A DNA stretch of 64,000 nt from Yuukianura sp. NJ FZ-2021 (Eukaryota), in NCBI GenBank assembly GCA_046563655.1, contig CM102289.1, forward strand, positions 7,378,001 through 7,442,000, in the 5' to 3' direction. Both the position numbers and the translations under genes were made by a program. Under the pieces are notes generated by a model. It did no database searches, was not told where the DNA came from, and saw nothing but the letters and a program-made list of their open reading frames with translations. Of this stretch, positions 1 through 43,632 are shown one piece after another (within the stretch, counting starts at the first letter, position 1; the number at the start of each line of letters is the position of its first letter).

Positions 1-1173
1 GTAGTCTGGTTTGCCCTCCAGCTCTTTTTTCAAAATTTCGAAAACAACTTTCGTCAATATACACTTCATAACCAAACTAGAGCGCTGCTTGCGTTCTAAA
101 CGCCTCCAGGCATAAACTTTGTTGTCTAAAATAGAAATCCTTATTTACAAATTTTGAGTTGTAACGAAACACGACACAAGTTGAATGGAGCCCTTCAAAA
201 ACTTTTGGCGCTCCTATAGTCAAAACCTTGAAATTTTGAAAATCTAAGTCCTGACACTTTGATCTTCCAAAGTCTTTACAAATTAGGTTATTAAGGCTTA
301 GGCTCTGGAAGGGACTGAACGCAACTAATTTGACGTAGCTCATATGTCACAAGACTCGGAGATTTACACTGTGCGTGTGTTATGCTGAAGGGCCCTTGAC
401 ACGATGCTCAAGGGACGCACATATGGAGAGATGAGGTAGATGAAAGGAAGAGGAAATAGAATGAAGGTGAATCTGGGATAACGAACCCCCTTCGTAATTG
501 CATTTCACTTTCATCTTCTTCATTTTGGGCTTTCACTCCCTTAGTTCCCTTAGATCTTGTCCTTATATTCATCTTCCAACGAAAAGCGAGCCGAAGAAAA
601 GATGGCAAATCTAGGAAAGTTTGCGCTTCACAAAGAATCGGACTTGATTTAAATTATTGACATTTTGTATTAACAATTCAATTTCTTCGGTTCCGTGGTT
701 CCACGGCGTAGCTTTATATTTTCAAGTTAGGTTTTGCAAGCTTTTACAAGGTTTGAACGAGGCATTCAAGTTATTAGGTTTTCTCCAAATTTCAACCAGA
801 TTTTGCAATTTAACGCTAGGCTGTGTCTGTCGTTATGTTTCACCAAAATTGTTTCCAAAAAAAATGTCAATCAGCTTTAGTAAATTTCTGTTAAATTTTG
901 CGATTTTGCTTGAATTATGGATAGCATGAAGTCAAGTCAAGCATAACAAATTTCTGTCAACTTTTTTCAATTTTGGTTGGATTCTGTTTAGTATGAAGTG
1001 ATGCTTATCAAATTTGATGCGATGCTTAGATTATGAATAGCATGAACTCAGGCGTAACAAATTTTTGTAAAATTTCAGAATTTTGCTTATATACAGAATG
1101 TTAGCAAGTTTCAATTTTCCAAATTGCAAGTTAGTTTATGTTGAATTAATATGCATAAACTTATGTTTTTCAG

Positions 1174-4100
1174 ATGTCTAAAACATATGTCAACGTACAG
1201 TAGTTGTGTCATGGAAGGCTATGGAGTTCTACCCTCAGCTCCACGATCTCTCAGAGTGTCGAGTGTACAAGAAGACTTTGCCATTGTTCACTGGACTCCG
1301 CCTGCCAAGTTGGCAAGTTCTGTCAAGGGCTACAACATTCACTACCGCCCTCTGGCGACATACGAAGCCGAGTATCACGTCGTCGGGAATGTCCACTCTC
1401 CCTACATTCTTGAAAAATTGTACGACAATGCTGAGTATGAGGTAACAGAGACAAAAGATCTTAAGAAACTTTCTTCTTTCTTTTATAGAAATTATAAATT
1501 GAAGCCTCTGAGAAGCTTTTAGAAGATACTCCATTATTAAACCACCGAAAAAAAGTTTTTCTGGTGGTTCTTCACAAGTCACTTTCAGTTTTCTACTTTT
1601 GTTTTGGAAAAAAAGTTTTCTCGAAAAAGTTTTTTTCTTGCTTTTTGGTGCCCTGCTCAAACTTGAACAAACTGGAAGTTTAGACCCCAAAAAGCCACTT
1701 GACTTGTCGTTGTTCAAATTTTGTTGTTCTGTGTAGGTCTATGTGGAGGCTCTTAATGAACACGGTGCAAGCCAACCGTCGCAGCGTGTGGTTTTCCGGA
1801 CGGAGTCTATGCATCTTGCAACGGCTGAACTAGAAGCAGAGTCGACGAGCTACAATGAAACAGCCTGTTGTGAGAAAGTATGAAAATAGTACAACTTTAT
1901 TATGATGTACACTAAAAGTTAGGGACTACAAAGTTTCAACAACAAAAGGAACAATTAAGTCCATGCTTTCTCCACTTTCTTTGTTCTTTTTACGACAAAC
2001 AATGGAGAGGATGAACCACAAATGCGCGCGCAGTTTGTCTTTCTTTTGTAAACTTATTTGCTGACTAACGTTTAAAAATTAACGTGCTGAACAGAATACC
2101 AACGTAGTAAATTTTTGGCCATTCGAACTTAACTAAACTTTGTAATTTTTTGAAACTCTGTTACATTTCGTAACTTTTTTGTGACTTTTGAAAATTTCAG
2201 GCTGGATTGAGTGAACTCTGTATGCCACTATGTTCGTACGACGCTTCTATGAGCGACATTCGCGTTTTGGCACTCTCCTGCGCACCAGAATTTCATACGC
2301 TTCTGCGCTGTGCTGCCGGTGGACGTGACCATAGTCAATGTTGTGAAAGGCGTGGAGTTGGTGAAAGTTGCTTAGGAATTTGCAGTGCTCGACTTCCTGA
2401 CAGCCTCTTACAAATGACAGAAACTTGTCTTCCATACATTGGAAACATTGTTCAGTGTTTTGAAGAGGGTAAGTCATTTGTTTTGTAAGGTTTTTTAAAA
2501 ATGTTATATGCGTTTGCGCTTTTTCAGCAATTTCTGTTCAAAATATTTTTGAAATTGCTTCCTCCAATCAACGAACTCAAACAACGACCAAATGAGTTTG
2601 TCACTGTCAAGCTATTTTCTAATTTTTTTTTCAAAATGAAAAAAAAAGTTTCCATTGGAAGAACGAAAAAAAGTTCAATAACTTTCCCATCATTTACTTT
2701 CTCTTTTTTCCAGTTTACCACTTCCTCGGCGAAAAAAAAAAATCAAACGACGCTGTGAAAAAGCTTCACCGCCGCCACACTATTCATTTTTCTCATCATT
2801 TTCTTTCTTTTTTTCCGTCCAGCAGTTCAATTTGAAAACTAATAGCAGCACTAGCTTTTCGCAGCAAGCTAGAAACCTTAGAAGCGAAAAAGCACCAGCA
2901 GCAGCCTTCAATTTTCTCACCGTTTTCTTTCACTTATTTTCTGTTCACATGAAAAAGTGTTAGGAATGAGAGTCGATTTTCTAAAGCGATTTCCCTAGTG
3001 CTTCATTTTCTGTTAAATAATTTACGAAAAACGCTGAACGAATTCTGAAAATGACGTTTTTCAAGGTTGTGCACTTTCACACGCTCGCTTTTAGTTTTAA
3101 ACAAGGTTGAGCAATTTGGAATGTCGGAGGTTGTTCAATCCGGAGATACTTAAGCTTCTGCTGCTGCTTTTTTTAAACTTTTTCGAAAAAAGGAGTAGCG
3201 CTTTTTGCATCTTCAGGGTTTCAAGCTTACTCTAAAAAGTTAAAAACATTATTGATCTGTGCTTGTTTTTGTGTTTAGGAACGGAGCTTCTTCCAGGACC
3301 TGTGAGAGAGTTTCATGCCAATTTGATAACAGATAACTCAATTGCTCTCTCCTGGGAAGCTCCAATTGAATCCAATGTGAGTCACTACGAAGTTTTCTAC
3401 CAATTGGCTGATGCATCACTTGGAAGAGATTCCACAAACCAACTTTTCTCAGTAAGGCAGCTTTTTTTAAACTTTTTCTAAATTCCCGCCTTTTCAGAGT
3501 CCATTTTGAACCTGTAATGATCAAATTTTGTGTGTCCCTCAGGTGAATGCTTCCGAACAAGCCGTCGAAGTGACAAACTTGACAACTAATTCCACTTACC
3601 TCTTCTCCGTTGTAGCAGTCAATGGACATGGCAGTTCCGTACCATCAGCTCTAATCCAAGTCACAATTTCAAGGAACCGTAAGATGGAACTGTCAATTAG
3701 TTTTAAAAGTTTAGTTTCCCGGGTAAATGACCTCCGACATTTTCCGTTTTTTAAAGAGTTCAACGGAACGCGGATTCCTGGAGTCGTTTCGGCTCCGCAC
3801 AGCATTGTTCTGGGGAGTCACACGGCTACTTGGCTCCAAATTGTTTGGCAACCACCGCTCTTTGCTCATCCCACAGACAACATTACGTACAAGTAAGTAA
3901 ACAAAAAGTTATTGAGGAACTAACGATTTATGGTCCAATTACTAAAGTTAGGTTTTTGGGAAGTAATAAGGATAAAGATGGCGTGTCTCATGGTAGTTAC
4001 TTCCTCTGTTTTTCTTTTCCAGTGTTTATCATCGGAGTATCCGAGACACCGTGTACGTGACCAATAAAACGAGCGTCACTTCAATAGCACTGGAGTCGCT

Positions 4101-6492
4101 GCGTCCCAATTCACAATACATTGTCTATGTTACGGCTGAAACGGAGAAGGGAGAGTCGTTGGCCTCTGAAACCCTGGTGGCTTGGACAGATCCAGCACAT
4201 TCACCCTATGTTGAAGTAAATATCTTGTTTCAAAATTTTGAGTTTCAAATTTCCGAGAAAAATTTGCATCATTTTTGTTTTTACTTTTAGGCTCCAAGAA
4301 TTCAGCCAGCAAATCTCTTAGTAGAGGGCAGCACCATGACAGTATTTTGTGTCGCTCTGGGTGATCCTACGCCAACTATTTCTCTTTACATCAATGGAAA
4401 ACTTTTGAAACAGTTGAAGAGTCGTCACTTGACAGAGGTTGTGCCCAACGTCAATCGAGAAATGGACATCGTGTCATGTCTAGCCGAAAATGGATATGGC
4501 GCTCCAATGCAAGCTTCCCGCCGAATTCAAATTTCACGTAAACCCAAAATTTAAAAAAAAATCGATTTCTTTTTAATTTAGAGAAAGTTTTACAACTTTT
4601 TATTTTTTGGGTGCAGATCCTCCAGTGGTGACTGGTGCTGATATAACACTAGGAGCAGTTGGAGACAAAACACTCCTGGAGTGTACTGTTGTGGCTCGTC
4701 CAGAGCCGACAGTTGCCTTTTGGCGTGGCGGGAAAGATGGATCTACTAAAGTGCCGATTGTGTCCGGTGGGAAGTACTCGATCCGCATGGAGGATCCAAA
4801 TCCCCTGGAGGATTCTAAGTACATCTACACACTCAAAGTGAGCGATTTGACAGAGGAAGATGGAGGAGACTACTTCTGTCAAGGGGACAATGCCCTGGGA
4901 GAGAGCACCAAGAAAATGATACTAAGGACGAGAGTAGTTCAGGTTACAATTTAGAAAAATTTGGCTTGTTTTAGAAAAAAAACGGTATTTAGTTTATAGC
5001 TTCTTTATAGCTTGTACTTAAAGGATTTTGATTTTTTGACAGAATGAAAGTTTGAACGTGTCCGCCTGTTGCATTCGAGAGAATGTGAGCCCGCAGTGTA
5101 TTGATGCCTGCAACATGTACCTTGATATTGACACTGTGATAGGTGAGTTATTGAAAACAGAATTTCAAAATTTTGAAGTTTACTAATTTTTGAAACACAA
5201 TTTTGGAATTGGTGGAACTTATTTTTAATAGTTTGTGTTATTAATTTTTGATTAGACAAACCGGAATGCCTCCCAGAATTTAATAAGTTGATGAAGTGTG
5301 CAGCAGGTAAAGTAGAATTTTAAATTAGCCTGCAAGCTTAAAATCAAATTTTGAGTAAGATTTTTTTAAAATTTTAATTTTTGAATGTAGATGGACGAGA
5401 TCACAGGCCATGCTGTGCTCAGAAATTTGTTCCGAAAATTTGTGCTGAGGCTTGTCATGGAATTCCAATTCAATTTGGAGCTGACGCATGTGCACTTAAA
5501 TTTACAAAGTCCATCCTCACCTGCTTTCATGAAAATCGAGGTACAGTGGTACAATAATACAACAATTTTTAAAAAAATGTTTCGAAATTTTTATTTTTTT
5601 TTCAAAATTTCAGAGTTGATTCCGGGACCACCAATCAATCTCCACTTCAAAATCATATCAGAAAATGAAGTTTTGGTGACCTGGGATCCACCAAGTAAAA
5701 ATCCAGACGCCGCCATTTTGTACAAGTAAGTATATTGACCTAATCACAACGGTTCAGACACATTTAAAAGTTGACCTTTGACCTCCACTTTACTTACAGG
5801 CTGTTTTGGAGACGTACAGGCGAAAAGCGTTCAGACAAGATCGACACGCCGCATACCTTTGCACATGTGCAGAACCTCAAGCCTGGCTGGACTTATGAAG
5901 CTGTCGTGAAAGCAGTGAGTTCTCATGGAAGTTCTGCGCTGAGCCCAAAACTTCCATTTACAACTGAACCAACGGAAGACAATACCATTGCATATGCCAG
6001 CACAGGTATGAAAAAATTTCGTTTATAAAATTTCGAAATTTTATATTTTATTTTTTCATCTTAGGTGGTGGAAATCCTGGTCTCAGCGTCGGTATAACGC
6101 TGTTAGTGCTGTTCCTCCTCACTGCTGCCGCAGGAGCAGTTTGGATTTTCAGAAAGAAACAATTCGGGCCAAAACCGCTTAGTTCTGTTGCATTTGAAAA
6201 TCCTTCCTACATCCGTGAACCAAACCCAGATGCCTTGATGAATGTAAGTTTTCAAAAAAATTCTAAAAATTTGAATTTTTGAAAATTTATTTTGTCTTTT
6301 TAGGGGAATGGCGACATTCAAAATGGGAATGGGGTAGTGCCTAGCGTCAGCAACGGGCTGTCTTCTCATGGGAATGGCTGGCAGTCAGAGTCCCTTCATG
6401 CAACACCGAGGCTAGAGACTGAAATAGCTCCGACACTTTACGAAGAACTCCGACTCGGATCCGAAGGTGCAGGATTTAGAAGACTGAAGTAA
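1174..6492 (+). CDS. Ig-like / fibronectin type III / Cys-rich DB-module single-pass membrane protein (IGDB-like); multi-exon, 5' end upstream of window
   Basis: Spliced exons encode FN3 repeats (PSAPRSL..VHWTPP, LPGPVREF..LSWEAP, LIPGPPINL..VTWDPP), DB modules (RCAAGGRDHSQCC, KCAADGRDHRPCC), two Ig domains (GGDYFCQGDN), a TM segment near 6080-6150 and a tail with FENPSY. TAA at 6490-6492. Confidence 0.88.
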
Positions 6493-7321
6493 AACTAAGG
6501 GAAAAAAATCTTCTGAAATCCAAATTTGTACGGAGAGGAACAAAGGTCATTTTTGGTTCAAAATTTAAATTCCAAAAACGAACATTTTTACCTCAACAGC
6601 AACTTCCTCTACAAACTGTGAACTCGAACGCATCTTAATTTTAGTATAAGAAAAAAAAACTAAACCACAAGTTTCATGAAAATGTGATCTTGGATTTTGC
6701 CCAAATATGAAAAAACACGTAAATATTTTAAGAACGAACACTACACGAGGGGTCGTACATATATGGGCAAGTGATATTGACTCTCAGCCATAATTCCATA
6801 GGATTTTGACGTATAAACGTAGGTACAAGTTATTGACGTCCCATTCCATAAAGTTAAAGTAACATTTTTAAGTTTTGTTGTGCTAATTAAGTTTTTTCTG
6901 TAAAGAGTCAAATACACGAAAAGCAGGCTTTTGTGTTCTTTTGAATTTTTTTGAATAATCTTTTCAAAAATTTTAGAAAGTAAACTCTTCTTCTTTCCTC
7001 TTGAAAGCTAATTTGTTAAGAAAAGTTTTCAAAAAGTGGTTAATTTTTTCTCATTTGTTTTAATTTCAATTGAAGATGTTTAAGTTTCTCTACTACACAA
7101 ATATTTTGTTTGAATGTGAAGGTACATTTCATTTTAAGTGGAAGATACAATAAATTAATAAAAAGCAATATTGACGTGTTGTAAAAATAATAAAGTTAGG
7201 GTTTAAAATTTTGAAAATCAGTCAAATTTAGGCTATTTGGATCTCGACTTTTGCTGCCATGCGTAGAACAGAGTAGTATACATGTGCAATAGCTACGGTT
7301 GGTGGACTATGGTTTCAAAAT

Positions 7322-8934
7322 CTACAATTTACTAATGAGATGCCCAACTCTGTTACACCTTGTCTGCGCCACTCCGTTGCCCAACTGCATCGTAGTACGC
7401 TGATCCTGGAAGAGTTCCTTGAGGAACTTGTTGAGGAACACCCCCTGGGGGTCAATTTTGTTTCGGAGGTCAATGAACTTGTGCCATTTTGGTAGTAGAC
7501 TTGGAAAGTCATAGAGGTCTCTGGAGAAGAACTTTCCATAGTGTGGAATAGCACCGAATTCGGATAGAATTGCTTCAACTTCTTTTAGAATTTCGTAACT
7601 TTCTTTTTTAGCAGAATAGTCTTGTTCAGAGAGGTACACGAGAAATCCAATGTAAACTACTCGTTTAGAATAAGATGGGCTGAGCCATGCACTGGAGCAA
7701 CCGGTAGCTCTTAGAATAAATGGATAATGCAGTTCACGATGAGATTCGGCAACATAGGCACGCAGACGCTCCAGAGCTGCGGGTAGTTTCTCGACTGGAA
7801 TTGCCACTTCGCAGTTGATTTGTGGTGCTGGAACGCCTTTACACCACAGTTGGTACATGTTTCCAATGGAACTTTCGAGAGACCGGAACCTCGTGACGGT
7901 TCGGAACCTTGCGTTGTGTTCGTTAAATGGATCCGGTTCGGTTTCGGACGAACCGGAATCGGATGATGTTGATGTGATCTCGCCGTGACCTTTGGTGTCT
8001 TCATCCATTTTCTCAACAAGGTGATCAATCGTTTGAAGAAAAGCGGCATCTTTACATGAAGTGGTTGATGTCGTGGCGGTAATGTTCGAACCGTTTTGAA
8101 TGTATCGGTCACAGTCTTGCTGAGAGGCGGCAAAAGAACGCCACACTTGAACCTGAAATGTTATAAAAAAAAAAGAGAAATTTTGAGTAAAAATTTTCGG
8201 ATTTCTGAAAAACTTTGGAATTTTTTTTTTTTTTTTTTTTGCAAAAATTAACTTACGTGATCAGTATGTGGGAACCACCATGCTTTGCAATGTGCCGAAG
8301 TCTCATTCCACTTTAAATAATTTTCATACAGATCGTCATAAGTCGTCACAGCTTTGACCAACTTGTAAGTCCTTGCCGGTTCAGTCTCCAGAGTAATCAA
8401 GGTCAGGATTCCTAAACATCCAAGATGCAATCTAAGAGCATCAAACATATCCGAATTGTCATCTTCTCTTGAGTAATCATGTGCAGTAGCATCCGCCAGA
8501 ACAACCCGGATCTTCAGCACACTATCATACAGTCCTCCATTTCGAAAGCCTTGTCCATGCGTCCCAGTGGCAATTGCTCCAGCTACTGTTTGCGTCAGCA
8601 GAACTCCTGCGCATGCCGTAAGTTGTCTCCCACGTTTAAGTAGAACGTCTGAAACTTCTTGAAGTGTCGTAGCTGCTCCAAAAGTGGCTTCATTTTGGCT
8701 TAGGCCAACAAGTCCTGTGAAGGCCGACAGATCTAGTAGAATGTCGCCATCGACTGAATTGGGAGCTAACGTGTCTACAGCGCCAATTCCAAGACATGAC
8801 ATGCCTGACCCCTTAACCTTGACTTTTTGATGGGGCCTTCGACGACGGAGAACCTCTATCAGTTCGTATTCATTGTTGGGCTTCACTAGCTGATCCTTCT
8901 CGCACAATTTGACAGTCCTTGCCCAATTGTACAT
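7322..8934 (-). CDS. FAD-linked aldonolactone oxidase family protein (GULO/ALO-like), 2 exons (8934-8257, 8152-7322), 502 aa, ends in SKL
   Basis: N-terminal NWART, FAD_binding_4-type motifs KVKGSGMS and QTVAGAIATGTHG, LHLGCLGIL, C-terminal PHYGK and IDPQGVFLN. A phase-0 GT-AG intron at 8153-8256 joins ..HTDH|VQVWRS.. in frame. Confidence 0.88.
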
Positions 8935-11255
8935 TTTGTGTCACGGTTGGCTCCAGGAACAAAAGAATGAATGACCAATTATGTCCGAATCGTTCTATTC
9001 TCAGGTACTACTGAAAAGCTGTAAAAAGAAAAAGTGTCATTGTATTGTCAAGTTAAGTACACAAACACATGACTGTGCGAATTATAATCTGCCTGAGCAG
9101 AACTATATAAAAAAAAAATAGAAGGTGACATCATAATCAACTCGTCTTATTGCAATCTACAAAGGAAATGTCAATATGAGAGTGGTCACGTAGGCACCGC
9201 TATTTCGAAACCACAATCGCTAAGAAATTTCCAGACGCTTTAAAAGCTCATAAAAATTTAATTAACTTATCAATAACGGAACTGCTGCGGTTATCTATTT
9301 GAAACTGCGATGTTGCAATCTTAACAAGTTTTACTTTATCACTTTATACATTTTAGTCTCTTAATTGCACGAAAGAGGAAGACATTTAAGTGCACTTTGA
9401 CCTATACGATTAAATTACGTTCAAATCGTTCCGCAGAGTAAATGAATGAACTGATTTTTTTTTTGTAAATTTGAAGTGGTTTACAGTTTAGAACACGTTC
9501 ACCAAAGTATTAAGTTTTAAAAAGAGTGTAGGCGTGTATGACGCGTTCAACGGATAAAGTGAAAGTGACGTGAAATCTACCGAAATTACAAAAGATTACC
9601 GTTCCACCCACTAACATTCCGGAGAAAGTTCCTTACATTTCAATTCATAGTACAATTTTAATCAAAAAATTCTTGACATTTGGAATACCTCGCGTACCGC
9701 AGTTTTATTGGATTTCCTTCCTCCGGGTTTCAGAAGTTTGGACAATAGAAAGAATAATGGAAACCAACTTCAATGTCTTTCAGAAACCGATTTTGAAATT
9801 TGAAAATTCAATGGTTCACAATTTCACTGTACATAGTGTTGGTTTCAAAAAAAAAACTAGAGAAAATTGAGTCGGACGGAACTGATTAGTGATAAAAGAA
9901 GACGACAGACACTACAGACCAAGGCGATCTCTTGTACTGAACTAAACTCTTTGTTCTTGACTTGTCTTATTCAAAAATGAGTTTCTGTCTTCACGTATTG
10001 AACTTTTGAACTTAAAGTATTAAACGCTTAACAAAAGTGTGAACTCATGTGCAGAAAGGTCAGGACGATAAAGACACTATTAAGACATTAGGTTGCTAAA
10101 TTCAGAAACACGTACTCCTGACACTTCAAATTTTCTGAAACTTAAGTTGAAATGTATTACTACACAAAGGATTGGTCATGAACATGACCTCCATTGTTCT
10201 ATCTAATCTTGCAGTAGACGCACTTTATCTTCAACCGCACAACCAATTACAAATCGTTTCATAGAACTTCAATTCACTTAAAAAGAGGGAAATCTCCCTT
10301 ACGCGCACACGCAGGCGTAGAAAAAACCAAGGACACCGGAAATCCTTGGAGGATTACCCGGTCGATTTCTATAGCCAAAGAAAATTTTTCAAAATTTAGT
10401 CTCAAAATATATGAGTGTTGTCTCACGTTTTAGACTGAAAAATGTAACAATTTTGAAAAAAAGAAAAGTATAAGATTAATGTAAACCAATAGGAAAAGCG
10501 TGACAATGCTTTGGAAATGTGCAAAAAAAATTGTTTCCAAAAACAACTATCCTAAAATATGAAATAAAATATGAAAATCTGATAGTTATTTAATAGAGTT
10601 AACGGAACTTACCACGTGCTTGCCTTGATGAAAATTAAAGTTCGTGGAGGATTTTAGTTACTCATTAGTTACATTTTATCACAATCGTCTTGAATGTTAT
10701 CATATCGTAGTCAGTTGATACAACGGTTAGGGCCAGTCATTGTCACGAGGTCACCGTTACAATTTTCAAATCGAGCCTGAAAATCTTGGAACTTGAATCA
10801 GGTCGAGACGATGCCAGAATTGGAACTGATGACATTTCTGCAGAACTGAAATATTCCAAACCACGAGGCAGCTGAAAGAATTCGGGTCTCCCGACTTCCT
10901 TCGGTGAGAACTCCAAAAAGCAATGTCAGCGCAGATCATGTACTGATCGTGTGGTTAAGTTTTATAACGCAAGCATTAAACAGTAAGATTAAAACACTAC
11001 CAACCTCAATTTACTTTAATCATAACGTGATCTGAATTACTTTTTCAAATGCTAAAAAGTTGAGATCATTTATTAGTTTTTATCACGATTCAGAAATTTA
11101 AGTTACATACTGGTTTTCAAATGGGAGGCAACTAAGTAAGTCAGTCACAATTAATGGAAGTGCACTAGTCCAAGTCTTCCAAATATTTCAGAAATTGCAA
11201 ATTAGATGTAACCCGTCCCTTAAAATGTTTTGGTGCAAAATAAGCGTGCTTTGAC

Positions 11256-14200
11256 TTATTTCAAATTTAAAGTGCACAAAATAGCGTAGGCTCTGCGCTG
11301 TTCCTGAGAATTTGTATCGAAAAGATGTACATAATTTTTTCCAAATGCAATTAGTCGCGTGGGTAAACGAGCTGAAATTTCGGAATTTGCTGCCGTTTCA
11401 TCTTCAGTGTCGATGTTCTGCTCATTTAACAGTGACTGTCCTGGAGATGCTTGCGAGTACACACAAAATGATCGGACGTCTTTTGAAAACGGATGGAAAG
11501 TGGAAATGTGATGAAGTTTCAGTGTTAACAAAACGATGAATCCAGTATTTGTGCCGACAAAGACAAATTCGTCCGTAGAGTGAAGAGCAGTCAAGTGCAG
11601 GGTTTTGCACATCATGGGATCTGGACCTTCACAATTATTCAGCAGTTTTTGTATATCCGCTGATGCAGTAATTTCTCGTTTGTCTCCATTCCAGCAATAA
11701 ATTACGCTTCCTGAAAGCAAACCAAAATTATAGTTAACAAAACCGTCATGAGGAAGTTCGTTTTGACAAAGTGCTGACCTGGAAAAAGATAAGAAAACAG
11801 GAATTCCTTCTTCGGATGTGTGTTGAGAAGTAAAACTTGAGCGTCACAATCGCTGCTGCCTTCATCTGCTAGATCATGTGATATTGTTTCCTGTCCGACA
11901 ACTTGGGCTCCAAGCAGAGAGAATATGCGCATGACGCCACTGTTTTCACCAGTCCAAATCTCGGCTTCATTTGAGCCTTCCCAACTCCTTGGAACAAGGG
12001 AATGTAAAGTCGATGCTTGTCCAAGTTCTGTCACCAAGTCACCAGTTTCTCCATTCACCAAGAAAAGTCTAGAAAATTTAGTAAGAAATATAATTTAGTA
12101 GTATCCAAGTATTTAACTTTACGACTGGAATGCTACGGATGCTCGCTGGGGCTTCGCCTTTCCCGAGAAAAAAAAATGAAAAAACAAAAATTCTCTACGC
12201 TCTACGGAATGCGAAATTTTTAAAATTATATCAAACTTTCAAAAACAAAAAAAAATTTTTTTTTGCTCATTCCACGCTTTATAATACTGAGTGAGTTTTA
12301 ATTGGGCTTGGGACAAAAAGTGAACAACAGTCGCGGACTTACACCTTCTCATTAGTATATGTTAATACGATAGATAGATTTTAGTTTTTAGTTTTACCTT
12401 CCACTTGAAAAAGCAACTGCAACCAATGCTCCAACTGCTTGAATCGAAATACATGCACCAAGACTTTGTCCAATGATCGACTTCAGTTCAAGTTCTCTAC
12501 TGATTCGTTCTCCTTCCAACTGAAAAATGAGAATGTTCGAAGAAATGTCGCCCATCCAAACTTGATTTCGCACCCGCGCCATTGCAGTGACAGCTCCAGG
12601 AATGAATGCAAATGCTTCACAACTTGCAAAACCCTCTTCCCGGACTTGGAGTGAGTAAATTGTTCCGGTGGAGCAACTAACCCACAATTCGTCATCCAAT
12701 CCCAAGGAAGTAACTACGTTCAGTTCCCAAGTTTCAGGTGGAGTGCCAACGCTTACTACGTCTCGTAATAAGACAAATTCGGGAGAGGAAGCGATTCGGA
12801 GAATTTTAGCTGCTGTGGGTCTATCTTTGGGAAGATTTTGCCAGCAGGCTACCATCAAATCCAGCATGTACATTGGATAACGCTCTGGTTTGACCATAGC
12901 TGGTCTCACACCTTCCAGAATGCTCTCTTTTATATTTTCGCATCCATCGTAAGGTTGCTTCAGACTCAGAATTTGGAAAATAACCATTCCGAGCGAAAAT
13001 GTATCCACCTGAAATTCAAAAAAAAATTATTTCATCCTTTTCAGAATTTTTTCGTTCACAAAGTTGTAGCTTTTCCAAACAAAAATTGAACGAACTTACG
13101 AGTTCAGTATATTCCTCTTCCCCGTTAAACCGTATAACTTCTGGTGCGATGAATCCTTCAGTTCCTCCGAATCCTTTATTTCCGGTCGGCAGAGCACTTC
13201 GACTAATGCCTATGATAATAAAAAAAAATTTAAACTCAGCAAAAATGAATTTCAAATAAAAAAAATGAACTACCGTAATCAGCAAGCTTCAGTTCTGTTT
13301 TGTAATCATATTTGGAAAACGGAGCTGGAAAAGCCCACACCAGAACATTCTCAGCTTTTAAATCTCTGTACAAGATTTTATGTCCATGAAGATACTCCAA
13401 AGCCTTCGCAACTTGAATTATACTCTGCTGCACTGTTGGTGGGGAAACGAAATCTCCAGATCGAGCATAATCCGCCAAAATAGTGTCAAGGGCTCCCCTT
13501 GGAGCTCGTGGCATAACAATCGAAAGTGATGTTTGTAGAAGACCAAGAAGTGGAACAATGTTTGGATGACTGACCCAGTAGAGCACTCGGATTTCACCTC
13601 GAGAAGCCAAGTATGCTCTACATGCCGACTGTGTTGGGGAACGACACCATTTTGTTTTGGCGGCTTTATAAGCAGACTGAGCTTCTTCATTTGCATCTCC
13701 AGGATCAATTGGATGAAAAGATTTGATAGCAACGTCCATCGTTCCCTTTAACGTTCCGCCAAAAACGAATCCAAAGGCACCACGTCCTAAAAATAAAAAA
13801 AAATTCAAAATCAGTATTAATTTAAAAAAAAACAGTTGCTAATTTTTTGAAATTTCATTCTTTACCCAATAACTGCTTCCTCTGAAGTTCATCTGAGTTG
13901 AGTAAATATCTTTTGGGGAGATCGTAAAACAGAATATCTGGAGCAACGCTGGAGAGATGAATTTCTCCATGTTTAGGACATTTCACAATTCTGAACTCTG
14001 AAGTTTGAGCTTCCAGAATAATATTTTCAATTGTCCAAGCATAGAAGTTTCTAGTCATAAATCCTAGATTTCTTGTTTCAGGACCCAGAAAAAAGTTTAA
14101 TCCAGCCGATTGTCCATGACCTCCAAATCTTGGAGTTTCAAAGGCAAGTCCAGTACGCAAACGTAGATTGCCAGGTCCAACTTCTGCATCAGCTTCATTT

Positions 14201-17200
14201 GTACTCAACGGACTGTGCCCTACTCCGGAATCGCTGGACATGCTCTTGGTCTTGCTGGAATTACTGGTTGACGGACCTTTTTCATTTGTCGGGAGACTAA
14301 AACAAGCTGGACATGGGCAGATCCTGGTGACAAGATACTTTCCTTCACTGGTGTGGACAAACCGAGTACCAATAGAGGGATACCAGTCTTCTAGTAAATT
14401 GTCAACTGCCTCCACACCAAGCGTCAACAATTTGGTCACACTTTCTATAGATGGGTTCAAAACTGAAGCTGGTTCTTCAGTTACGGTTTCCAAAGACAAG
14501 GAAAGACACTAAATTTTTTGAAAAAAAAAATATTAACAGTCTGTACAAAACTACCACTTTTTTGTTTAAAATTCTAACTCACGGGCAAATGGATTTCAAG
14601 AAGCCCGGCTTCATTCAAATCCACAGCATCCCAACACGTCTCTTCTTGGCGCCCACCACCAGCGCTCTCATCTGTTGAGTCCGCCAAATCACCTTCGTCG
14701 TCCCTTCGAAGCATAAACGTATGTGGTTTATCACTTCCAGTTACTTCTCTGATTCGAATCAACGTCAGCTCGCCATATTTCAGCTCCAGTCCAGTTTGCC
14801 AACAGAGCCACTCTGCAGGTTGGTCCAGTAATGCTACCATTGACGACGTAACTTCAGTTGGAGGAGGTAGAGTGAAGTAATGCCGCAGAATTTCAATCAC
14901 TCGATCATCGGATACTGGAAAATTCAATACAGTAAAAATGCCTCTTCAAGGTCATCTTCTACTACTTCATCAAAGTAAACTTACAAATTCGACTCATCAA
15001 CCGTGGCCAAAATCCTGATGGAAAGTAAGACAGCATAAGGAAGCGCGTAATCGCTCCCAATTCTTTCCGTTCTGGCCGCCAAACGGGTGGCTCCACTTTC
15101 GCTTCTTCGGAGCACGGCTCTCTTTGGTCCAATTTTTGACTTTCACGCCACTCACGACTTTGTTGCAACATCCAGGCTCTGGACCGCAGTGATACTTTCA
15201 CTCTTACTTCATTTTGTCCCATTTTCATCTGCAAACATAAAAAATATGAATTCATTCCAAAGCACTGCAAGTATGTCAAAAAATTTATATCTTGATGCTT
15301 ACCTGTTCCGGTGTTGGAAGAAGCGATGGAATGAGTAGGTTCACACCGTCATAAGGAATTGCCAACTCAAATTTTGAAAGTAAATCCAAAATGTAATCTT
15401 GAGTAGCCTTGGAACGTCCCTTGAACAAAAATGCTAAATCTTGTATCCTCATTGAACCGCCTTGACAGAATGGATTGATTCCTCGAATTGTGACGACATT
15501 CGCAAGAACGTCACAGAGCCATTGCGGGTCCAGGAAATACAATTCTCCAAAGTGCAGAAGAATTCCGTTTTCATGAAGGAATGTACAAGCCTACAGTTAA
15601 AAAGTGTTCAAAATTCATGAAAATATGGAAGTAAACTAAAAGAGCAAACCTGAGCAATTTCAGCATCATCGCGAAATTTAAGTCCATAATTTGTATCTAA
15701 CCACATAGAAGCCTGCGCCTTAAACTCCTCTTCCGTTAATACTGGATCTTGACCTCTTGACTTTCTTTCACTGGCCAAAAAAGTTACAATTTCTTCCAAA
15801 TGGATATACTTTGACGGTACGTGTTGCTCCAACAAAAACTTTCCATTTGAAGTTTTCAGTGTCACAGCAGCATCATAAATGACGGTACTCAAATTCTTGA
15901 TATTATACTTCGTTCGACACGAAATTTCCAGCGAAGTCAATACTCTTGGAAGTCCACGCTTTTCTGGATCCGAAACACAAATGAACTTCTCCCGAATCTT
16001 TTGTTCCAGGTAATCCAAGTATCCCGGTGGAAATTTTTCACTGACGAGATCATAGTGAGTTCCAACAATTATAACTGGAAAAAACATTAGAAATATTAGA
16101 ATCTCCAAGCATTTTTGGCTCTATTGTGATTACCTGGAGAGTTAGGAGCACGACCTTGAATGTTGACTAGCCATGCGTGGACTTCTCGCAGTCCCTTCTC
16201 ACCATCACAGATATTCCAAAGTAGTAAATACAGACTTCGTTTTGATAGAAAATAGGAATGTGTAGCATAATACTCCTTTTGACCTCCAAAATCCCACGTT
16301 CGAAACGTAACTGGACCACGGTTTCCTTTTTCCAAAGTTAAGCATCCAATGTCAACACCAACAGTGGACATAAGTTTGCCACCTTTGGAAGGTGTGTTGC
16401 CCATGCGTTTTGTCCAAGTATCCGACCCCTTGCCGGTTCCCTCCTGACGGAGAAGATTCAATAAACTAGTTTTTCCGATTCCATGGACTCCAACTGTCAT
16501 TAGCTTCATCCTGGCATAAGGTCTGGCATCTTCCAGGACACCTTAGACAAGAAATTGAGTCAAGTTAAACAATTTTTCGAAATTTTATATTGATTTCAAA
16601 ATCGGTGTTTTACTTTTCAAGTATCCCATAACATCTATAGTTTTTGATCCTTTGCGTTCAACAAGTGATTTGAGTGGTTCTTGTAGTTTACATCCTTGCA
16701 AATTCAGGTTCCAAATACGCGAAAGCAGTCCAATTTGCGGTGGAAGTTCTCCCAAATCTTTGTTTCCAGAAAGATTTAGCACCGAAAGCAGAGTTAATGA
16801 AGATATCCGGGGACTCAGTTCACTTAATTTGTTCTTAGATAAATCCAAAGTTGTGAGATTTGGAAACCAAACGAATGGTTTCCGACCTTCTATGGCCATA
16901 AGTTGATCATCAAATGATATTTCCAGAGAAGTTAGAGCATTTCCACTGAGTATTATAGTTTTTAGATTATCCAGTCTACGAAAGCGATTCCGGTGGGGAC
17001 ACAATACAGTTGGATCAACACAGCAGCTTGGTCCATTCGATTCGGAACATGAAAACCATGAACGAATTTTATTTTGACTCAAGTCGAGGTGACGGAGCGA
17101 TGCTGGATAGTCGCCAATTGAGCCCATTTCCTTTAAACTAGAAAAACAAATCGTTTAAAACTTTGGACTAACCAAAAAAATTACATCGAATTCCAGTTTA

Positions 17201-20058
17201 CCTGTTGAATGCCATGCTTAACCTTTGGATTCTATTGGCCCAACACGCCAACGCTGCTGGAACTTTAGTAAAAGAATTGTGACTAAGATTTAGCGATTGA
17301 ATTGAATTTCCTTGTGTTTCGGCTTTCAATTGTTCTTCATCAGCTTCTTCCCCAATAGTCACACTGGTTCGCCACATCGCTTCATGGCTAACAGAATCAC
17401 AGCTTCTACGGCTTCTAGAACTTGATCTTCTTCTTTTCTGAATTTGTTTTTCAGAATCAGTTGAATGCCTGTTAGAACTCTGTGACTCTTCAGTTTGAGG
17501 TCCCTGAGGAAGATCAGCGATTAGATTCAGCGATACATTCAGATCTTGAAGTTTCGGGGCAAGCCACATCGTGGACGGAAGTGAATCGAATTTGTTGTTA
17601 CTTAGATTAATTGTAACAAGGGAAGGAAAGTTAGTAAACAAAGCTGCCGGACATTCATCGATCCTGTTTTCTTGCATAAGAAGTTCTTGGAGACGGACCA
17701 ACAGTGGTCCACGCGACGGTAGAGTAATCTTGGTTATTTTGTTTCCGCTGAGATTGAGATATACGAGACTTGACAACTTAAAGATGCAAGATGGAATGGA
17801 GTCGAGTTGGTTGTTTGATAAGTCAAGGCGAGTAATAGCCTGCAAACCCATAGTTTCACCTCTGCCGGGTGCCAGTCGAAGTTTCGGATTCAGTTTAACA
17901 CCAGCAGAAACGAGCCATGTTTCTGAAACTTTAGTTAGCCTCTGCGCATGCCAGTTGACATTTACTGGAACTTTTGGTAGGAGTGATGTGGCCAGTAACT
18001 TCTTTCCAGTTCCCTCACGCATGTTCTGTTGTATCTCCTCAGTATGTAAAATTCCTTCAGCATCGGCATAAGCTTTCAAAGTTAAAAGCTTCCCGAGAAT
18101 TACATCGTCCCGGGACGATATTGATAGAGCAATGGAATCTTCATCCCGAGCTCCATGTTTCAGCAGAAGGTCAATCATACCGAGATCTCTATTTTTACAA
18201 GCCTCTGCCAGTGCACTGGACTCGTGCCTAAAAAAAGTTATCTCGGTAATCAAGTCAACACAATGCTAAGAGTAAGTTATGCATTACCTTGTTTCTGCTT
18301 TTGGATCACCCGTGGTTATGATGTATGTTGAAGTAGGCGCAAGAATGGGCAGATTTGGATCGGCCCCGGCTGATAACAGTGAAGTGGCAATTCCATGATG
18401 ACGAGCTTTGACAGCCAAGTGAAGAGCAGTTTGATATTCTTCACAATACAAGTTCACGTTGACTGGACAAATGAGATCTTTCCTGGGTTGAGTTGCGGTT
18501 GTTGGAGCCATTGAAAATGAAAGTCGCTTAATTATTCCTTGAATTCCTTCTGAGACTTTTCCTTTGGTGGGACTCGTAGCTTCATGAACGATGGCTCCTT
18601 TCTTGGAAACTCTGAATTTGAGTAAGATGTCAACCAGACGAGGATTGGCCATTTGACATGCAATGTAAAGACATGTCTGATCTGATACGTCCTTCTGATT
18701 GATGTCAAAAACCATTTCATATTCATCGTCAGCTGCATCATACCTGAAAAACAGAGAGTAAATTGTTTGAAAACAATTAATCCATAATGGAAATGGACAA
18801 TTTTCGACAGTTACTTGAATGTCGTAAGGAGGTCAGTTGGATAATTGAAATTCAGCAACAGATCCAAAACCGCCGTGTGGCCATGTATACAACAGACATG
18901 TATAGGCAACCATTTCTCAACTGTTTGGGATTTTGCCAATGCTGGAAATTTCTGTAACATGACATCATACTTAACAACATCACTGCCCAGAAATTTTGGA
19001 AGTTGTAACTTACTTCTAAAAGCTTGCTGACAACAGTTCGATGACCATGGTAAGAGGCAATATACATTGGGGAGTATTTTGTAACGGGGTGAATTCTGCC
19101 ATCGCTCCCATTTTCCAATAAAATGTCAACCAATTCCAAATTCCCTGATTCGCAAGCTCTGAAAGACAAGTAGTACCATGAAATTTTTCTATTTTAGCTT
19201 GTTTATTAAAATATTACATAAACAGAAGAGATTGAGTTCCATGTGGTGTTTTGTTGAGCAATTCCTTTCGATCTGAAGGTGAAATAGGTCGTAGCAGATT
19301 AGTCAAAGTCTTGACATCTCCTCTCGTAACAACTTCCCGGAGACTGGTATGAAGATCTTCACGAGCCACTTCTTTATCCTTGGTAAATTCTATTAGAAAA
19401 TTGTAAGTTTCCATGTGTCCTCCTCGCAAGGCCAAATCTGCTGCAGTCAGAGCTCTGCCTTCCAAGGATGACACATCAGCGCCAGCTTGAACTAGCCTCT
19501 TGACGTTGGATAAAAATCCGAATTCTGCAGTTGTGTGAAGTGGTGTTTTAAAATTATCTTGTCCGCCACTGACTGCGTTTGGATTTGCTGCAAATAAAAA
19601 AAAGATCACACTAATACTGCAAAAAAATCCATGCGAAATAGTAGCTGTATCCAACCTCCATGTTTTAGCAAAACTTCCAAACATCTTGAGTCATGCGTTG
19701 TCGCTGCTGCCTTTGAACACCAAAAATGTTAACAATTGACCCTCACTAATCAGCGAATAACACATGACACTATGCGTTATATCTATGTTCAACTTACATG
19801 TAGGGCCGTACGACCCCATGAATCCTGGCTTTCAATTTCACTTCCTAGGTCACCTCGAAGAAGGTCAATCAGTAACTCGGCGTTGTCCCATAAAGAAGCC
19901 TACGAAACAACAAATTTTAGCCATCTTCGTTAAACATCATCCAACACCATTGATATAAAAATTCAACTAATCAATTTAATTTTCCAAATTCGAGGTTAAG
20001 TTCAATTCACCTGATGCAAAAGATGACCAGGAAAATCTCCATCTTCGGCTTCGCTCAT
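11256..20058 (-). CDS. Lrrk: Leucine-rich repeat kinase (ROCO family: ANK-LRR-ROC-COR-kinase-WD40-like), multi-exon
   Basis: Ankyrin repeats (~18290-19900), LRRs (16610-18230), ROC GTPase motifs GVHGIGKTSL, WDFGGQ and GTHYD, COR (YFLDPQWLCDVL), kinase GRGAFG, YRDLKAENVL, LADYG|ISR and GTEGFIAPE. Start MSEAEDGDFPG at 20058. Confidence 0.95.
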
Positions 20059-26798: not shown

Positions 26799-28357
26799 TC
26801 ATACACTCGGAAAAGTAACTAGTAAATTGATAATGTTTGTGACAATGAACGCGTGGATCAGAACAGGGAAAGTACTTGTAGTAATATAGAAATAGTGTCC
26901 TACATCAAATTTTAAAGGTCGATTTGACCTGATGACACACTTGCCGAAATTCAATTCTGAAGGATTTGTTTGTCTTGAATTTAACCAACACAACTTGGAG
27001 TCCAAAATTGAATTTTCCGTAATTCGAGCACAACGATCAACACACCCATACAAAGTAAAAATTAAAAAAAGTGCAATTATTGCAGTAGTGACAAGCAGAG
27101 CCATGCTTGGAATGCGGTCATGAAGACGAATATACGAAAATACAGTGACGATGACCAACAAACTGCCAAGTGGAATGACATGAGGTAGAATCCTTTCCAC
27201 CAAGGCCATATACAAAGTGTGATGAACTTGTTGAGCTCTGTACAATTGTTGTACCATGTCAAGCAACTCTCTAGGCTCCGTTTTGGGGCATCTTTAATAT
27301 AGTTATTACAGTAAATTAAAAAATACTTTCATTAAAAAACAGCGCAAGTTTGAACTTACGTCGCCAGTTTAGTCATATTTCTTTGAAATTCGGTGGTTAT
27401 ATAAACGTGAAAAAGCATCATATAAATGAATGCCAGTGCTATTATCCAGTTTGCCACAAATAGAATTCCCAATACGCAGAACAAAGAAATTGTGATCCAA
27501 ATATTTCCAGTATTGATATATCTGAGTCCAGCGAAGTTACAATGTACTGCGTATATGCCAGCTGGCATACCCAATACGAAAGCCACTGCGGCAGACAAAA
27601 ACGTCAACCTCGTCATGAACTGCATTCGTATATCTTCATTTCCAGTTTTGTTTGCAGTACGAATTTGCTCTAGTAATATTATAAGAAACACATGTATAAC
27701 CAACACAAGTATTATACATATTATTAAGAATATATAGTATAATATACGTAGTGTACATAATAACATTCGTACACATGTAACACATGTAGTAGCTTTGGAT
27801 ACGAGTATGCATAAAGTATGAAGTATGATTTATAACTTTCAGAGTCAAACTATACTTCCTGCATACTTATATCTAAATATCTAAACAACTAATTTGATTT
27901 TTATGCATTTTATACTTGCTGTTTTGTTGTATTTTTTTTAATATTTCTATTTTCATTATATGTAAGTGTCTTTTTTATTCTCAAATCTATGCTTACCTCC
28001 AACTTTATTGAAATATAGCAACCCGTTGTAATGTACTGGAAAAACTATGCGTGCGATTAAGAGGGTCATATATATAGGAGATGCAGTTTGTAGAGTCAAT
28101 CCAATGAGAACTACCACTGTAACATCTGATACATTCGTAGTTGGATCTGTAATGCAACCTACTACTAAAAACCCAAAAACAAATAATTGAATGCCAACAA
28201 TCATAAAAATTCTGACTAGACTTTTAAATATGTCAAAGTTGTGGAATTGGGGACACAAAAGTTTAGTTTCTGAGTCCCAATAGAAGGGAATAATTCCATA
28301 CAAGTTACCAATTTTGACGCACCAGACTAATGGTTCAAAGGATTTTTGAGACAGCAT
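26799..28357 (-). CDS. 7TM chemoreceptor-like protein (GR/OR superfamily), copy 1; exons 28357-27997, 27669-27360, 27291-26799; 387 aa
   Basis: In-frame splicing, multiple hydrophobic segments, N-terminal G..PF.W motif, C-terminal RPLKFDVGHYFYITTSTF...NIINLL resembling the TM7 region of arthropod chemoreceptors. Confidence 0.72.
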
Positions 28358-28749
28358 GTTCTCACACTTTTTTTTCTAAAATTTAGCGTAATTTTTTTTG
28401 TTTCGGTCCCCAGTTTGCCACTACTCGCTTTCCGAGCAAAGTAGAGCAAACGTTTCTTATCCAGAAAGCTCCTTAATTGGTCAAGGTTAATCAGTTCTTC
28501 CCTTACCATGTTGATTAATATAAATTTTAGACAACAGCGTTAGATTAAGACCGCCTATTGAAAACAGCGTTAAAACATCTTAACTTTGAAACACCTTAGG
28601 ATCGTTAGTTTGTTCTATGCATTCCAGTAGCAAACAAAAAAGATGCTGAAATATTAGTTGTGGCTTTCGAAGACTTCGTTCCTAGATATGTTTTGAAATT
28701 TTAAAAGACTTCGACGATTAAAAAAAAAACGAATCTCTTTTTGAAAACC

Positions 28750-30574: not shown

Positions 30575-30845
30575 GTTATTTTGAAAGTGCAACTTTTTTG
30601 AAAGTCGTCTCTCAGTGTTTGCCTAAACTCCGTTTGCGGACTGGTTTCGAAATGCTGAAAGACCTTGACAGTTGATACTCAATCGGATAAAATATCAAAC
30701 GGAGAAGTTTTTTTAAACCCTGCAACTTGTGTAGCAATGGCTTTGACTTTTCAATGCATTTTTTAATAACGTTCGTCCTTTTGAATACTTTTTGTCATTT
30801 GTTCGAGGAAAATTCCAATGTTAATTATTTGTAAATTTTTAAGTT

Positions 30846-42844: not shown

Positions 42845-43632
42845 TTATTCTAACACGTAGATGAAAGTGGGGATTTCGAGATGCACCAGTTCTTCCTTAA
42901 TAATTTCGCTAATTCTGTCCCAGTTGCCGCGACTAAGACCAGCTCCAATTCTTGGCATGTGAACAGTCGCATCCATCTCCAAGGCTTTTGTTGCTACTTT
43001 CCTGAGTGCGATCCGTAAGCCAGCGTACTTGATCGGAGGGTCCCCGCTTCTGTTCGGAGCTGTTTGGCCAATCATATTTGCTACTGTTATGTCTTCCGTG
43101 ACAGATACGAATTGAACTAGCCCCAGGTCGATTGGTGTTGGAAGGGTCCGGTACTGCTCTTCAGGAAGGTGCCATCGTTTGGACAAGGCGAGAACGAACC
43201 CCCTCCCCCAACCACCGGCAGTATTACATATATGAGCAATGATTTTCTTGCCAGTGCCAATTGGGGTGGTTGCGTCTCCTTCGACGTATTGGAGAACATG
43301 CGGCAGAGACGAAACGTGACTGGATCCACTGAAAAAATAGAACATCAATGAATCATACTATTTCATATCAATGATGACGGGAATACCACATATGCTGAAT
43401 CTAAGTGCGTGTGCAGTTACCTTGAATTAGTACTGAAGTGCTCCGCCTCCGAATCTGAGGAAGATCTGTCTGACGGAGTTCTCAAACTCCTGCTTCTGCC
43501 GCTGACCTTTGACCTTGACGATGTTATGGCAAGACGGGAGTTCTGTTTTGAAGTCAGCCTAGTCTTGGCTTTGGTGACTCTACCACTGATTGTTGATGAA
43601 GTTAGGGCCTTCTTATTATGTTTGCTATCCAT
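42845..43632 (-). CDS. Macrodomain ADP-ribosyl hydrolase-like protein (bacterial SCO6735/Poa1p-like type) with a basic Ser/Arg/Lys-rich N-terminal exon; exons 43632-43421, 43328-42845; 231 aa
   Basis: YVEGDAT, IIAHICNTAGGWGRGFVLALSKRW, VANMIGQ, VHMPRIGAGLSRGNW. A phase-2 GT-AG intron at 43329-43420 joins the exons in frame. Confidence 0.87.

Follow-up and report, generated by a model that had tools for sequence, protein, structure and literature searches.

Among the enzymes that finish vitamin C synthesis, plant GalDH holds the 2-alkoxide of its substrate with residues Arg388 and Lys456 for hydride transfer to the flavin N5 (PMC11099136), and the motif HWAK is considered diagnostic of true GULO (PMC6582580). 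Horizontal gene transfer into springtails is well documented, with ca. 30 % of the foreign genes being common to Folsomia candida and Orchesella cincta (PMC5490193), and the cases described include beta-lactam genes and an alternative oxidase; one more transfer would be unsurprising in kind. Here we describe a gene from the springtail Yuukianura sp. NJ FZ-2021 that codes for a putative flavoprotein of an uncharacterised subfamily among these enzymes. It lies in a stretch of 64,000 nt of contig CM102289.1 (positions 7,378,001–7,442,000; assembly GCA_046563655.1), hereafter the window. We favour, with a probability of about 0.65, the reading that the springtail obtained this gene by horizontal transfer from a chytrid-like donor, that it is now a host gene, and that its product is an oxidase with non-covalently bound flavin adenine dinucleotide (FAD), probably using O2 and directed to the peroxisome. 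To our knowledge, no member of the subfamily has been characterised.

Gene structure and coding product

Coordinates are given as positions within the window, and the gene lies on its minus strand. Exon 1 (8934–8257) opens with an ATG at 8934–8932 and contains 226 codons, from Met1 to His226, which encode the FAD-binding domain and the first part of ALO; its product begins with MYNWARTVKL, and its start matches the first residue of the related proteins P0003 to P0007 in the alignment. It is followed by a single spliceosomal-type intron of 104 nt (8256–8153; GTAAGT...TTTCAG), rich in A/T runs and with a guanine plus cytosine (GC) content of 18 %. The unspliced reading reaches a stop two codons past exon 1 (...HTDHVS*). 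The junction HTDH/VQVW (..WWFPxTDH/VQVW..) is gapless in the alignment with full-length relatives, and it is solely from this alignment that the splice is predicted. Exon 2 (8152–7322) adds 276 codons and a TAG stop, comprising a variable insert, the core of the ALO domain and a C-terminal tail, for a coding frame of 1509 nt and a spliced product of 502 amino acids ending in RVGHLISKL.

An earlier, sequence-only reading of this DNA had described a flavoprotein of this length with one spliceosomal intron, which agrees with the GT..AG borders found here and with the presence of two Pfam domains, both above their gathering thresholds. FAD_binding_4 spans residues 15–152 (8479–8892, minus strand; E = 1.2e-16, 61.1 bits, gathering threshold 26.4) and precedes the ALO domain, which extends from residue 180 to 472 (7415–8397, minus strand) and is split by the intron: its exon 1 part covers residues 180–225 (E = 4.2e-06, 27.1 bits) and its exon 2 part covers residues 88–246 of that exon (E = 5.5e-35, 121.7 bits; gathering threshold 23.1 for both). 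The first span holds GSGMS, with Met45, Gly110 and ATGTHGQG (residue 122); the second holds HYPFILR, with Arg374, YIGFLVYL, with Gly395, and PHYGK (residues 429–433), with Lys433. The motifs THGQG and GVPAPQINCEVAIP, which had drawn attention before, were located at residues 122 and 332, respectively. Outside the Pfam ALO profile, residues 1–87 of exon 2 (7892–8152, minus strand) form a variable segment, partly rich in Ser, Thr and acidic residues, where the length of the insert differs among relatives; in a structural model of P0003, the equivalent loop (283–298) had a predicted local distance difference test (pLDDT) value below 50. All of the 47 columns invariant across 21 eukaryotic relatives are retained in the springtail protein.

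Past the domain end (..FLNKFLKELF) there is a C-terminal extension (7325–7408, minus strand) that ends in HLISKL, with the S, K and L codons at 7333–7325 and the TAG stop at 7324–7322. The SKL end had thus been read correctly before, and the length of the tail, given as about 27 residues, is 28. A pattern scan of the minus strand found an ATTAAA at 7059–7064, 257 nt past the stop; this is the sole polyadenylation-like hexamer within 422 nt 3′ of the stop, and a weak one, matching in consensus only.

Relatives and family placement

When exon 1 was used as query, the best match was P0003, a JGI protein of 483 amino acids that is 77 % identical over exon 1 and 72.7 % identical over 476 residues of the spliced product. 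The next matches were proteins at 49–54 % identity and that of Gorgonomyces haynaldii (exon 1, 50 %; spliced product, 49 %), followed, among the matches listed, by Sorochytrium and by actinobacterial and other bacterial proteins; the identity to the Boothiomyces protein is 44 %. A search at near-query length, for exon-sized fragments of intron-bearing relatives, gave three matches, none above 56 %. There was no named animal among these three or among the best 120 of the 239 matches to longer proteins, and the proteins of Orchesella cincta, Orchesella dallaii and Allacma fusca, which are present in the collection, were absent from the exon 1 matches listed.

An exhaustive profile search of 1.84 billion representatives produced 11,206 matches at E ≤0.001. 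About 45 of these, full-length or fragments, matched in a single stretch with more than ca. 280 bits, and the lower ranks consisted of bacterial proteins whose match was divided into two stretches and stayed under 240 bits. Organism names were recovered for part of the matches, and the named members are the chytrids Gorgonomyces, Boothiomyces, Clydaea, Lobulomyces, Phlyctochytrium, Geranomyces and Rhizophlyctis, the blastoclad Sorochytrium, the amoebozoan Endostelium, the heterolobosean Pharyngomonas and, among bacteria, Rosenbergiella/Tatumella and a Streptomyces. No animal and no oomycete was present among the named subfamily members looked up. The proteobacterial or oomycete affinity proposed in the sequence-only reading therefore does not hold for the nearest named relatives, which are chytrids (Gorgonomyces and Boothiomyces); the gamma-proteobacterial Rosenbergiella and the actinobacterial members belong further out in the same subfamily. 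In the ESM Atlas, the matches to P0003 were all large bacterial clusters annotated as D-arabinono-1,4-lactone oxidase, which is uninformative as to animals, and a metagenome scan with the family alignment found at least 80 loci, whose best segment identity was ≤46 % among the matches listed.

The curated families leave the springtail protein outside. Against TIGR01678 (sugar 1,4-lactone oxidase; cut-off 396.8 bits), exon 1 scored 95.5 and exon 2 scored 55.4 bits; against TIGR01679 (bacterial FAD-linked oxidoreductase; cut-off 292.25), 83.3 and 76.8 bits; and against TIGR01676 (GalDH; cut-off 458), exon 1 scored 36.3 bits. The full-length P0003 reached 161.9 bits on TIGR01678, and 31 subfamily members scored at most 216.5 bits on TIGR01679 and at most 161.9 bits on TIGR01678; other representatives from the same profile search do clear one or the other of these two cut-offs. 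Judged by these scores, the protein is not a GULO, an ALO, a GalDH or a member of the curated bacterial group. That it is not a GULO of the vertebrate type had been suspected before, and its Met45, its HYGK motif and its position in a separate clade, described below, agree with this.

Phylogenetic position

We computed a maximum-likelihood tree of 58 rows and 458 columns, using the model LG+C20+F+G4 with posterior mean site frequencies. The rows were taken from ca. 270 proteins, omitting fragments shorter than about 400 amino acids and most bacterial representatives; the GULO/ALO reference rows were classed by score with hidden Markov models alone, without organism names, and the root was placed on six rows, four passing the cut-off of TIGR01678 and two just below it (384.7 and 389.3 bits). 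The springtail protein and P0003 grouped with support 100/99, and both fell within a clade of nine rows (clade A, 100/100) that also contains Gorgonomyces, Boothiomyces and five further proteins; Gorgonomyces and Boothiomyces are both Rhizophydiales, from different families. Clade A joins a clade of 17 rows, with other chytrids, Sorochytrium, Endostelium, Pharyngomonas and further rows, to give 26 rows with support 97/91, and a subfamily of 40 rows (100/99) adds bacterial rows of the Rosenbergiella, Streptomyces and Raineyella type. This subfamily stands apart from the rows of TIGR01679 and TIGR01678, and the six outgroup rows group separately. It is sister to, yet outside, the GULO/ALO and the bacterial “FAD-linked oxidoreductase” groups.

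The springtail protein is, therefore, nested with strong support among non-animal sequences. A constraint uniting the other 24 eukaryotic rows to the exclusion of it and P0003 was rejected by an approximately unbiased (AU) test (delta log-likelihood 118.3, p = 8e-11), for a group picked after the tree had been seen. The non-animal relatives proposed earlier are thus recovered by the tree, by the AU test and by the matches to exon 1. The path from the springtail protein to Gorgonomyces is 1.11 substitutions per column, and that between Gorgonomyces and Boothiomyces, summed from branch lengths, is about 1.50; the springtail protein is thus nearer to a chytrid protein than the two chytrid proteins are to each other, which does not fit a split dating from that of animals and fungi, but does fit a transfer. 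Unless rates differ greatly, the springtail sequence split from the chytrid sequences no earlier than the two Rhizophydiales split from each other. The stem under the springtail protein and P0003 measures 0.27, against 0.68 for the stem of clade A. This placement was judged on named, annotated proteins, among them two of the seven sister rows.

Host setting and integration

The window has no undetermined bases (N) and a GC content of 37.8 %. On one side of the flavoprotein gene, and convergent with it, there is a gene of several exons on the plus strand (1145–5729) with Pfam matches to fn3 and Ig/I-set in the open reading frames (ORFs) 1145–1522, 3510–3896 and 4577–4954. On the other side, a gene on the minus strand (11256–19690) has the architecture of LRRK, with ankyrin, leucine-rich repeat, Roc GTPase and kinase matches in ORFs between 12394 and 19690; its 3′ end is ca. 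2.3 kb upstream of the ATG of the flavoprotein gene, on the same strand. The window contains further animal genes, namely SID-1, rhomboid and COPB2, and the top named matches of a COPB2 exon are O. cincta (91 %), O. dallaii (90 %) and A. fusca (89 %), versus 83–88 % for other arthropods, which agrees with a collembolan host distinct from these three species. The presence of ordinary animal genes on both sides, as reported in the sequence-only reading, is thus corroborated by Pfam.

The composition of the gene is that of its neighbours. Its coding sequence has a GC content of 0.462 and a GC content at third codon positions (GC3) of 0.427, compared to 0.37–0.48 and 0.29–0.50, respectively, in 20 neighbouring ORF stretches, and its relative synonymous codon usage correlates at 0.69 with that of the pooled neighbours, native ORFs correlating at 0.37–0.73 with the rest. 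The composition profile around the gene showed no step. Comparison of the flanks for repeats gave only chance A/T-rich matches, with no sign of a transposon or of target-site duplication. With a canonical AT-rich intron and neighbour-like composition, it appears to be a resident host gene; the canonical intron had been pointed out before, and the host-like GC, GC3 and codon usage now join it.

The runs listed for the stretch are five public DNA runs from two studies, with no RNA run among them, and the contigs of four of these DNA runs cover all 30 bins of the region 3000–14000. One piece comes from a run of the second study whose label gives another organism; it spans 6992–7438 with eight differing letters and crosses the stop into the 3′ flank. 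None of the short contigs listed for 3000–14000 joins the flavoprotein gene to a neighbouring gene. The contigs over this region also showed many single-base and small indel differences, with several alternative short contigs per place, which is consistent with high heterozygosity or with mixed individuals in the sequenced samples; many joints on their low side look like artefacts of repeats or alleles.

Active-site residues and predicted chemistry

The histidine that carries the covalent FAD in GULO and ALO, through an 8-alpha-N1-histidyl link, is replaced by Met45 in the springtail protein; this residue (GSGMS) aligns with the His of the alditol oxidase 2vfr (GSGHS) and with the Leu of GalDH 8qmy/8qnc (GSGLS). 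Because Met45 takes the place of the flavin-linking His, the FAD should be bound non-covalently. At the gatekeeper position, Gly110 (C-A-G-V) aligns with the Gly of the A113G variant of GalDH in the HMMER alignment, in agreement with the family profile. This makes the protein likely, although not certainly, an oxidase, since the assignment hangs on a one-residue gap.

In the profile alignment, Arg374 aligns with Arg388 of GalDH and Lys433 with its Lys456, the pair that holds the substrate. Additionally, Gly395 aligns with Gly413 of GalDH, where GULO has Asn. Members of the subfamily share the signature HYPFI[LF]R ... PHxGK, both parts of which are present in the springtail protein; its second part varies as PH[YVLFWNM]GK, and 13 of the 14 bacterial rows have PHWGK and one has PHLGK. 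The HWAK of true GULO (PMC6582580) is absent from the springtail protein. The region with the residues of the GalDH gating loop was not alignable.

We examined the fold on a model of P0003, which is 73 % identical to the springtail protein (pLDDT 82.6, predicted template modelling score 0.85). Among the solved structures compared by Foldseek, GalDH was the best match, with a template modelling (TM) score of 0.75, then alditol oxidases (0.67–0.80) and then DprE1. The model thus suggests a two-domain VAO fold for the springtail protein as well. Both Pfam domains and the Arg/Lys pair would place it in the aldonolactone/alditol oxidoreductase branch of the VAO superfamily, and the catalytic core for the oxidation of a sugar-type secondary alcohol appears to be present. 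Nevertheless, the substrate cannot be named, because the predicted substrate pocket is unlike that of all characterised relatives.

The C-terminal tripeptide

SKL is the canonical tripeptide of the peroxisomal targeting signal type 1 (PTS1). Using the pattern [SAC][KRH][LM] at the C-terminus, the springtail protein, which ends in SKL followed by TAG, and P0003, which ends in CKL on a shorter extension, are both PTS1-like (2/2). The pattern was present in none of the other seven rows of clade A, whose proteins stop at the domain end, in six of the 17 rows of the sister eukaryotic clade (AKL, AHL, SRL in two near-identical chytrids, SKL, and ARL in Geranomyces); it was missing from all 14 bacterial rows. 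By protein, PTS1-like ends were seen in P0009, P0010, P0130/P0271, P0135 and P0141, which are chytrid, blastoclad and further eukaryotic members.

A PTS1-like end is thus a recurrent trait of the eukaryotic members of the subfamily, and its recurrence suggests that zoosporic fungi and protists share a conserved peroxisomal oxidase reaction not yet described, which the springtail gene may make accessible in an animal. Because such ends recur among eukaryotic members, the SKL is not necessarily a springtail invention, and the earlier proposal of domestication after transfer is not needed for it. The tag fits an enzyme predicted to form H2O2, and may have come with the gene or have arisen after the transfer.

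Origin and function of the gene

The horizontal acquisition put forward in the sequence-only reading continues to be the best reading, given the tree and the host-like composition. We envisage that the gene passed from a chytrid-like fungus, or from an unsampled close relative of that lineage, into the springtail nucleus, where its composition would have become that of the host and a spliceosomal intron would have been gained. The product would be a flavoenzyme of two-domain VAO fold with non-covalent FAD, in which Arg374 and Lys433 would deprotonate and hold a secondary alcohol group, on a sugar lactone or a polyol, while hydride passes to the flavin N5; O2 would then re-oxidise the reduced flavin, as Gly110 at the gatekeeper would permit, and H2O2 would be freed. 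Recognition of SKL by the PTS1 receptor would take the folded protein into the peroxisome, whose catalase can dispose of the peroxide.

Several observations weigh against one or another part of this reading. Concerning the chemistry, the same one-residue gap makes HMMER pair Ala109, and not Gly110, with Ala113 when wild-type GalDH is used, and an ungapped reading of the alignment puts Ala at the gatekeeper of the alditol oxidase, which is, to judge by its name, nevertheless an oxidase. The Glu of the Glu-x-Arg found in GalDH (E-Q-R) and alditol oxidase (E-I-R) is not kept: Glu386 of GalDH corresponds to Ile372 (F-I-L-R), a position read by offset, as the printed profile alignment begins one residue before the Arg. 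Likewise, the motif HWXK is HYGK, its PHYGK aligning with eHWaK (GalDH) and with PHWGK (alditol oxidase), and in the galactonolactone oxidase of Trypanosoma cruzi a change of the Trp of HWXK to Gly abolished flavin binding (PMC11505616). Splicing, expression and the expressed C-terminus are predictions from the DNA. As for the origin, the springtail protein and P0003 are sister to, rather than nested within, the other seven rows of clade A; since organism names are at hand for just two of these seven, the donor is not pinned down. In addition, the group submitted to the AU test was chosen with the tree in view, and the lack of animal relatives is weak evidence where close kin are concerned, many springtail genomes being unannotated and missing from the protein collections.

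Part of these observations would fit as well an ancient opisthokont paralogue with an ALO domain, inherited vertically, which survives in some chytrids and one springtail lineage but was lost from nearly all other animals. The sister position just mentioned, the poor coverage of unannotated animal genomes by protein searches, the occurrence of fungal members in two clades, indicating old paralogy in the family, and an identity to chytrid proteins (49–50 %) that is not in itself too high for an old orthologue all speak for it; it is a candidate we consider unlikely, because it needs very many independent losses, with no named animal, nor any of three annotated springtails, among the matches listed, and since the springtail-to-chytrid path is shorter than that between two chytrids of one order and the stem of the springtail protein and P0003 is short beside that of clade A. 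A true insertion that is now silent or decaying, with a fortuitous SKL, seems quite improbable: although the only polyadenylation-like hexamer is weak, the 1509-nt frame is intact across two exons with a canonical intron, no family-invariant column has been lost, and P0003 shares both the start and a PTS1-like end, suggesting constraint on the tail; moreover, full amelioration needs a long residence, during which an unconstrained frame is unlikely to stay open. We give very little credit to an artefact in which DNA of a chytrid or other microbe in the sample was misjoined to springtail sequence. Springtail gut and cuticle carry fungi, no listed contig piece links the gene with a neighbouring one, and the best-matching DNA runs may be the assembly's own sample; but the window contains no gap and has animal genes within 2–3 kb on either side of the gene, GC, GC3 and codon usage match the surrounding genes and the profile is stepless, a run of the second study that bears the label of another organism covers the region, including the piece from the coding end to the 3′ flank, and the closest named fungal protein is just 49 % identical, which argues against a fresh contaminant from a known fungus.

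A further alternative concerns function, and is that the enzyme works as a true aldonolactone oxidase, giving back to a hexapod without GULO the final step in making ascorbate or an erythroascorbate-type compound. The springtail would then have reversed the pancrustacean loss of GULO by means of a chytrid oxidase, with an H2O2-producing last step located in peroxisomes. The retention of the Arg/Lys pair, the probable Gly at the oxidase position and the equivalence of Gly395 to Gly413 of GalDH (PMC11099136) are in line with it, as are the choice of GalDH as best structural match to the P0003 model, the reported absence of GULO from Pancrustacea (PMC6582580; PMC11377030, section 8) and the arrival of trypanosomal ALO in glycosomes by a C-terminal SHL (PMC11505616). 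However, the protein is outside both curated lactone-oxidase groups by scores and tree, Glu386 is replaced by Ile and HWXK by HYGK, the gating-loop region is not alignable, and alditol oxidases share the Arg/Lys pair and the fold, so a polyol or another sugar fits equally; nor do we know of a characterised member of the subfamily. We consider this alternative doubtful, and a role in ascorbate synthesis possible on weak pointers. Hexapods are reported to be without GULO and the ascorbate route of some of them is unexplained, for which the springtail enzyme would be a concrete candidate; if true, a fungal gene would have re-created a vitamin pathway in a hexapod, in a compartment comparable to the glycosomes of trypanosomes.

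Other features of the window

An open frame of 170 amino acids on the minus strand (42845–43357) has no Pfam match. Its best solved relatives are bacterial stand-alone macrodomains (2fg1, 1.7e-44; 2afc, 2.3e-44; 5e3b, 5.8e-39), with far weaker matches to eukaryotic macro domains (CHD1L, 1e-11; OARD1, about 3e-3), and its GC3 of 0.485 is exceeded only by COPB2_a (0.495) among the tabulated ORFs. This frame is a candidate for a second gene of foreign type in the window.

Two adjacent sets of ORFs on the minus strand, at 26799–28375 and 28986–30622, code for very similar multi-pass membrane-like sequences (e.g., SNRPLKFDVGHYFY, TFPVLIHAFIVTNI) that do not match any Pfam family at threshold. They look like a tandem duplicate, and could be a lineage-specific pair of chemoreceptor-like genes. 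Also on the minus strand, a low-complexity frame of 518 amino acids (53556–55112), rich in Pro, Ser and Ala, has no Pfam match; by eye, its end resembles the start of an SH3-type motif (..ALYDYQAGN).

Comparison with described systems

The foreign genes described in Collembola (PMC5490193) resemble the gene reported here in being of fungal type, linked to native genes and in having an intron and host composition. None of the sources given in excerpts of that literature, in contrast, is a chytrid-like donor. We found no earlier report of the gene family in springtails in the literature searched: no paper paired arabinono- names with Collembola, those that mention both gulonolactone oxidase and Collembola deal with regucalcin and DHCR24, and the main text of the F. 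candida genome paper, searched for lactones, and two of its supplement files were negative. The lineage “GL4, Collembola-only” (PMC11377030) was considered as a possible prior report and rejected, as it consists of DHCR24 homologues according to section 8 of that paper.

With the animal GULO and fungal ALO of TIGR01678, the springtail protein shares the arrangement of FAD_binding_4 and ALO, the Arg/Lys pair and, probably, a Gly at the gatekeeper. It differs from them in having Met for the covalent His, HYGK for HWAK or HWGK and Gly395 for the Asn of GULO, and it is located in a separate clade, with scores far under the TIGR01678 cut-off.

The bacterial alditol oxidase AldO (2VFR, 8OT8) has a profile score of 129 bits, comparable to that of GalDH, and TM scores of 0.67–0.80 to the P0003 model; it is the only solved family matched by exon 2 alone, and its Arg and the Lys of its HWGK occupy the same positions. 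We take AldO to be a soluble, H2O2-forming oxidase, which would be a further likeness. Unlike the springtail protein, it has the covalent His (GSGHS), the Glu in E-I-R and the Trp in HWGK, and it is bacterial, without a targeting signal and without the variable insert.

Plant GalDH (8QMY/8QNB/8QNC/8QNR, 7SML) is the best structural match to the P0003 model (TM 0.75) and, as in the springtail protein, it does not have His at the covalent-flavin site, with Leu in place of Met45; Arg388, Lys456 and Gly413 find their counterparts in Arg374, Lys433 and Gly395. Nevertheless, identity is only about 20 %, Ile372 stands for Glu386 and HYGK for HWAK, and GalDH, a dehydrogenase, has Ala at the gatekeeper, where the Gly assigned to the springtail protein would predict an oxidase. 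The two also differ in destination, GalDH being mitochondrial whereas the springtail protein ends in a PTS1.

The arabinono- and galactonolactone oxidases of trypanosomatids differ from it in having HWXK and in being reported as members of the aldonolactone oxidoreductase family proper; the analogy to them is functional only. In them, as predicted for the springtail protein, an ALO-domain enzyme is sent to a peroxisome-type organelle by a PTS1, in that case SHL, and the FAD of the protozoan ALO enzymes is bound non-covalently (PMC11505616).

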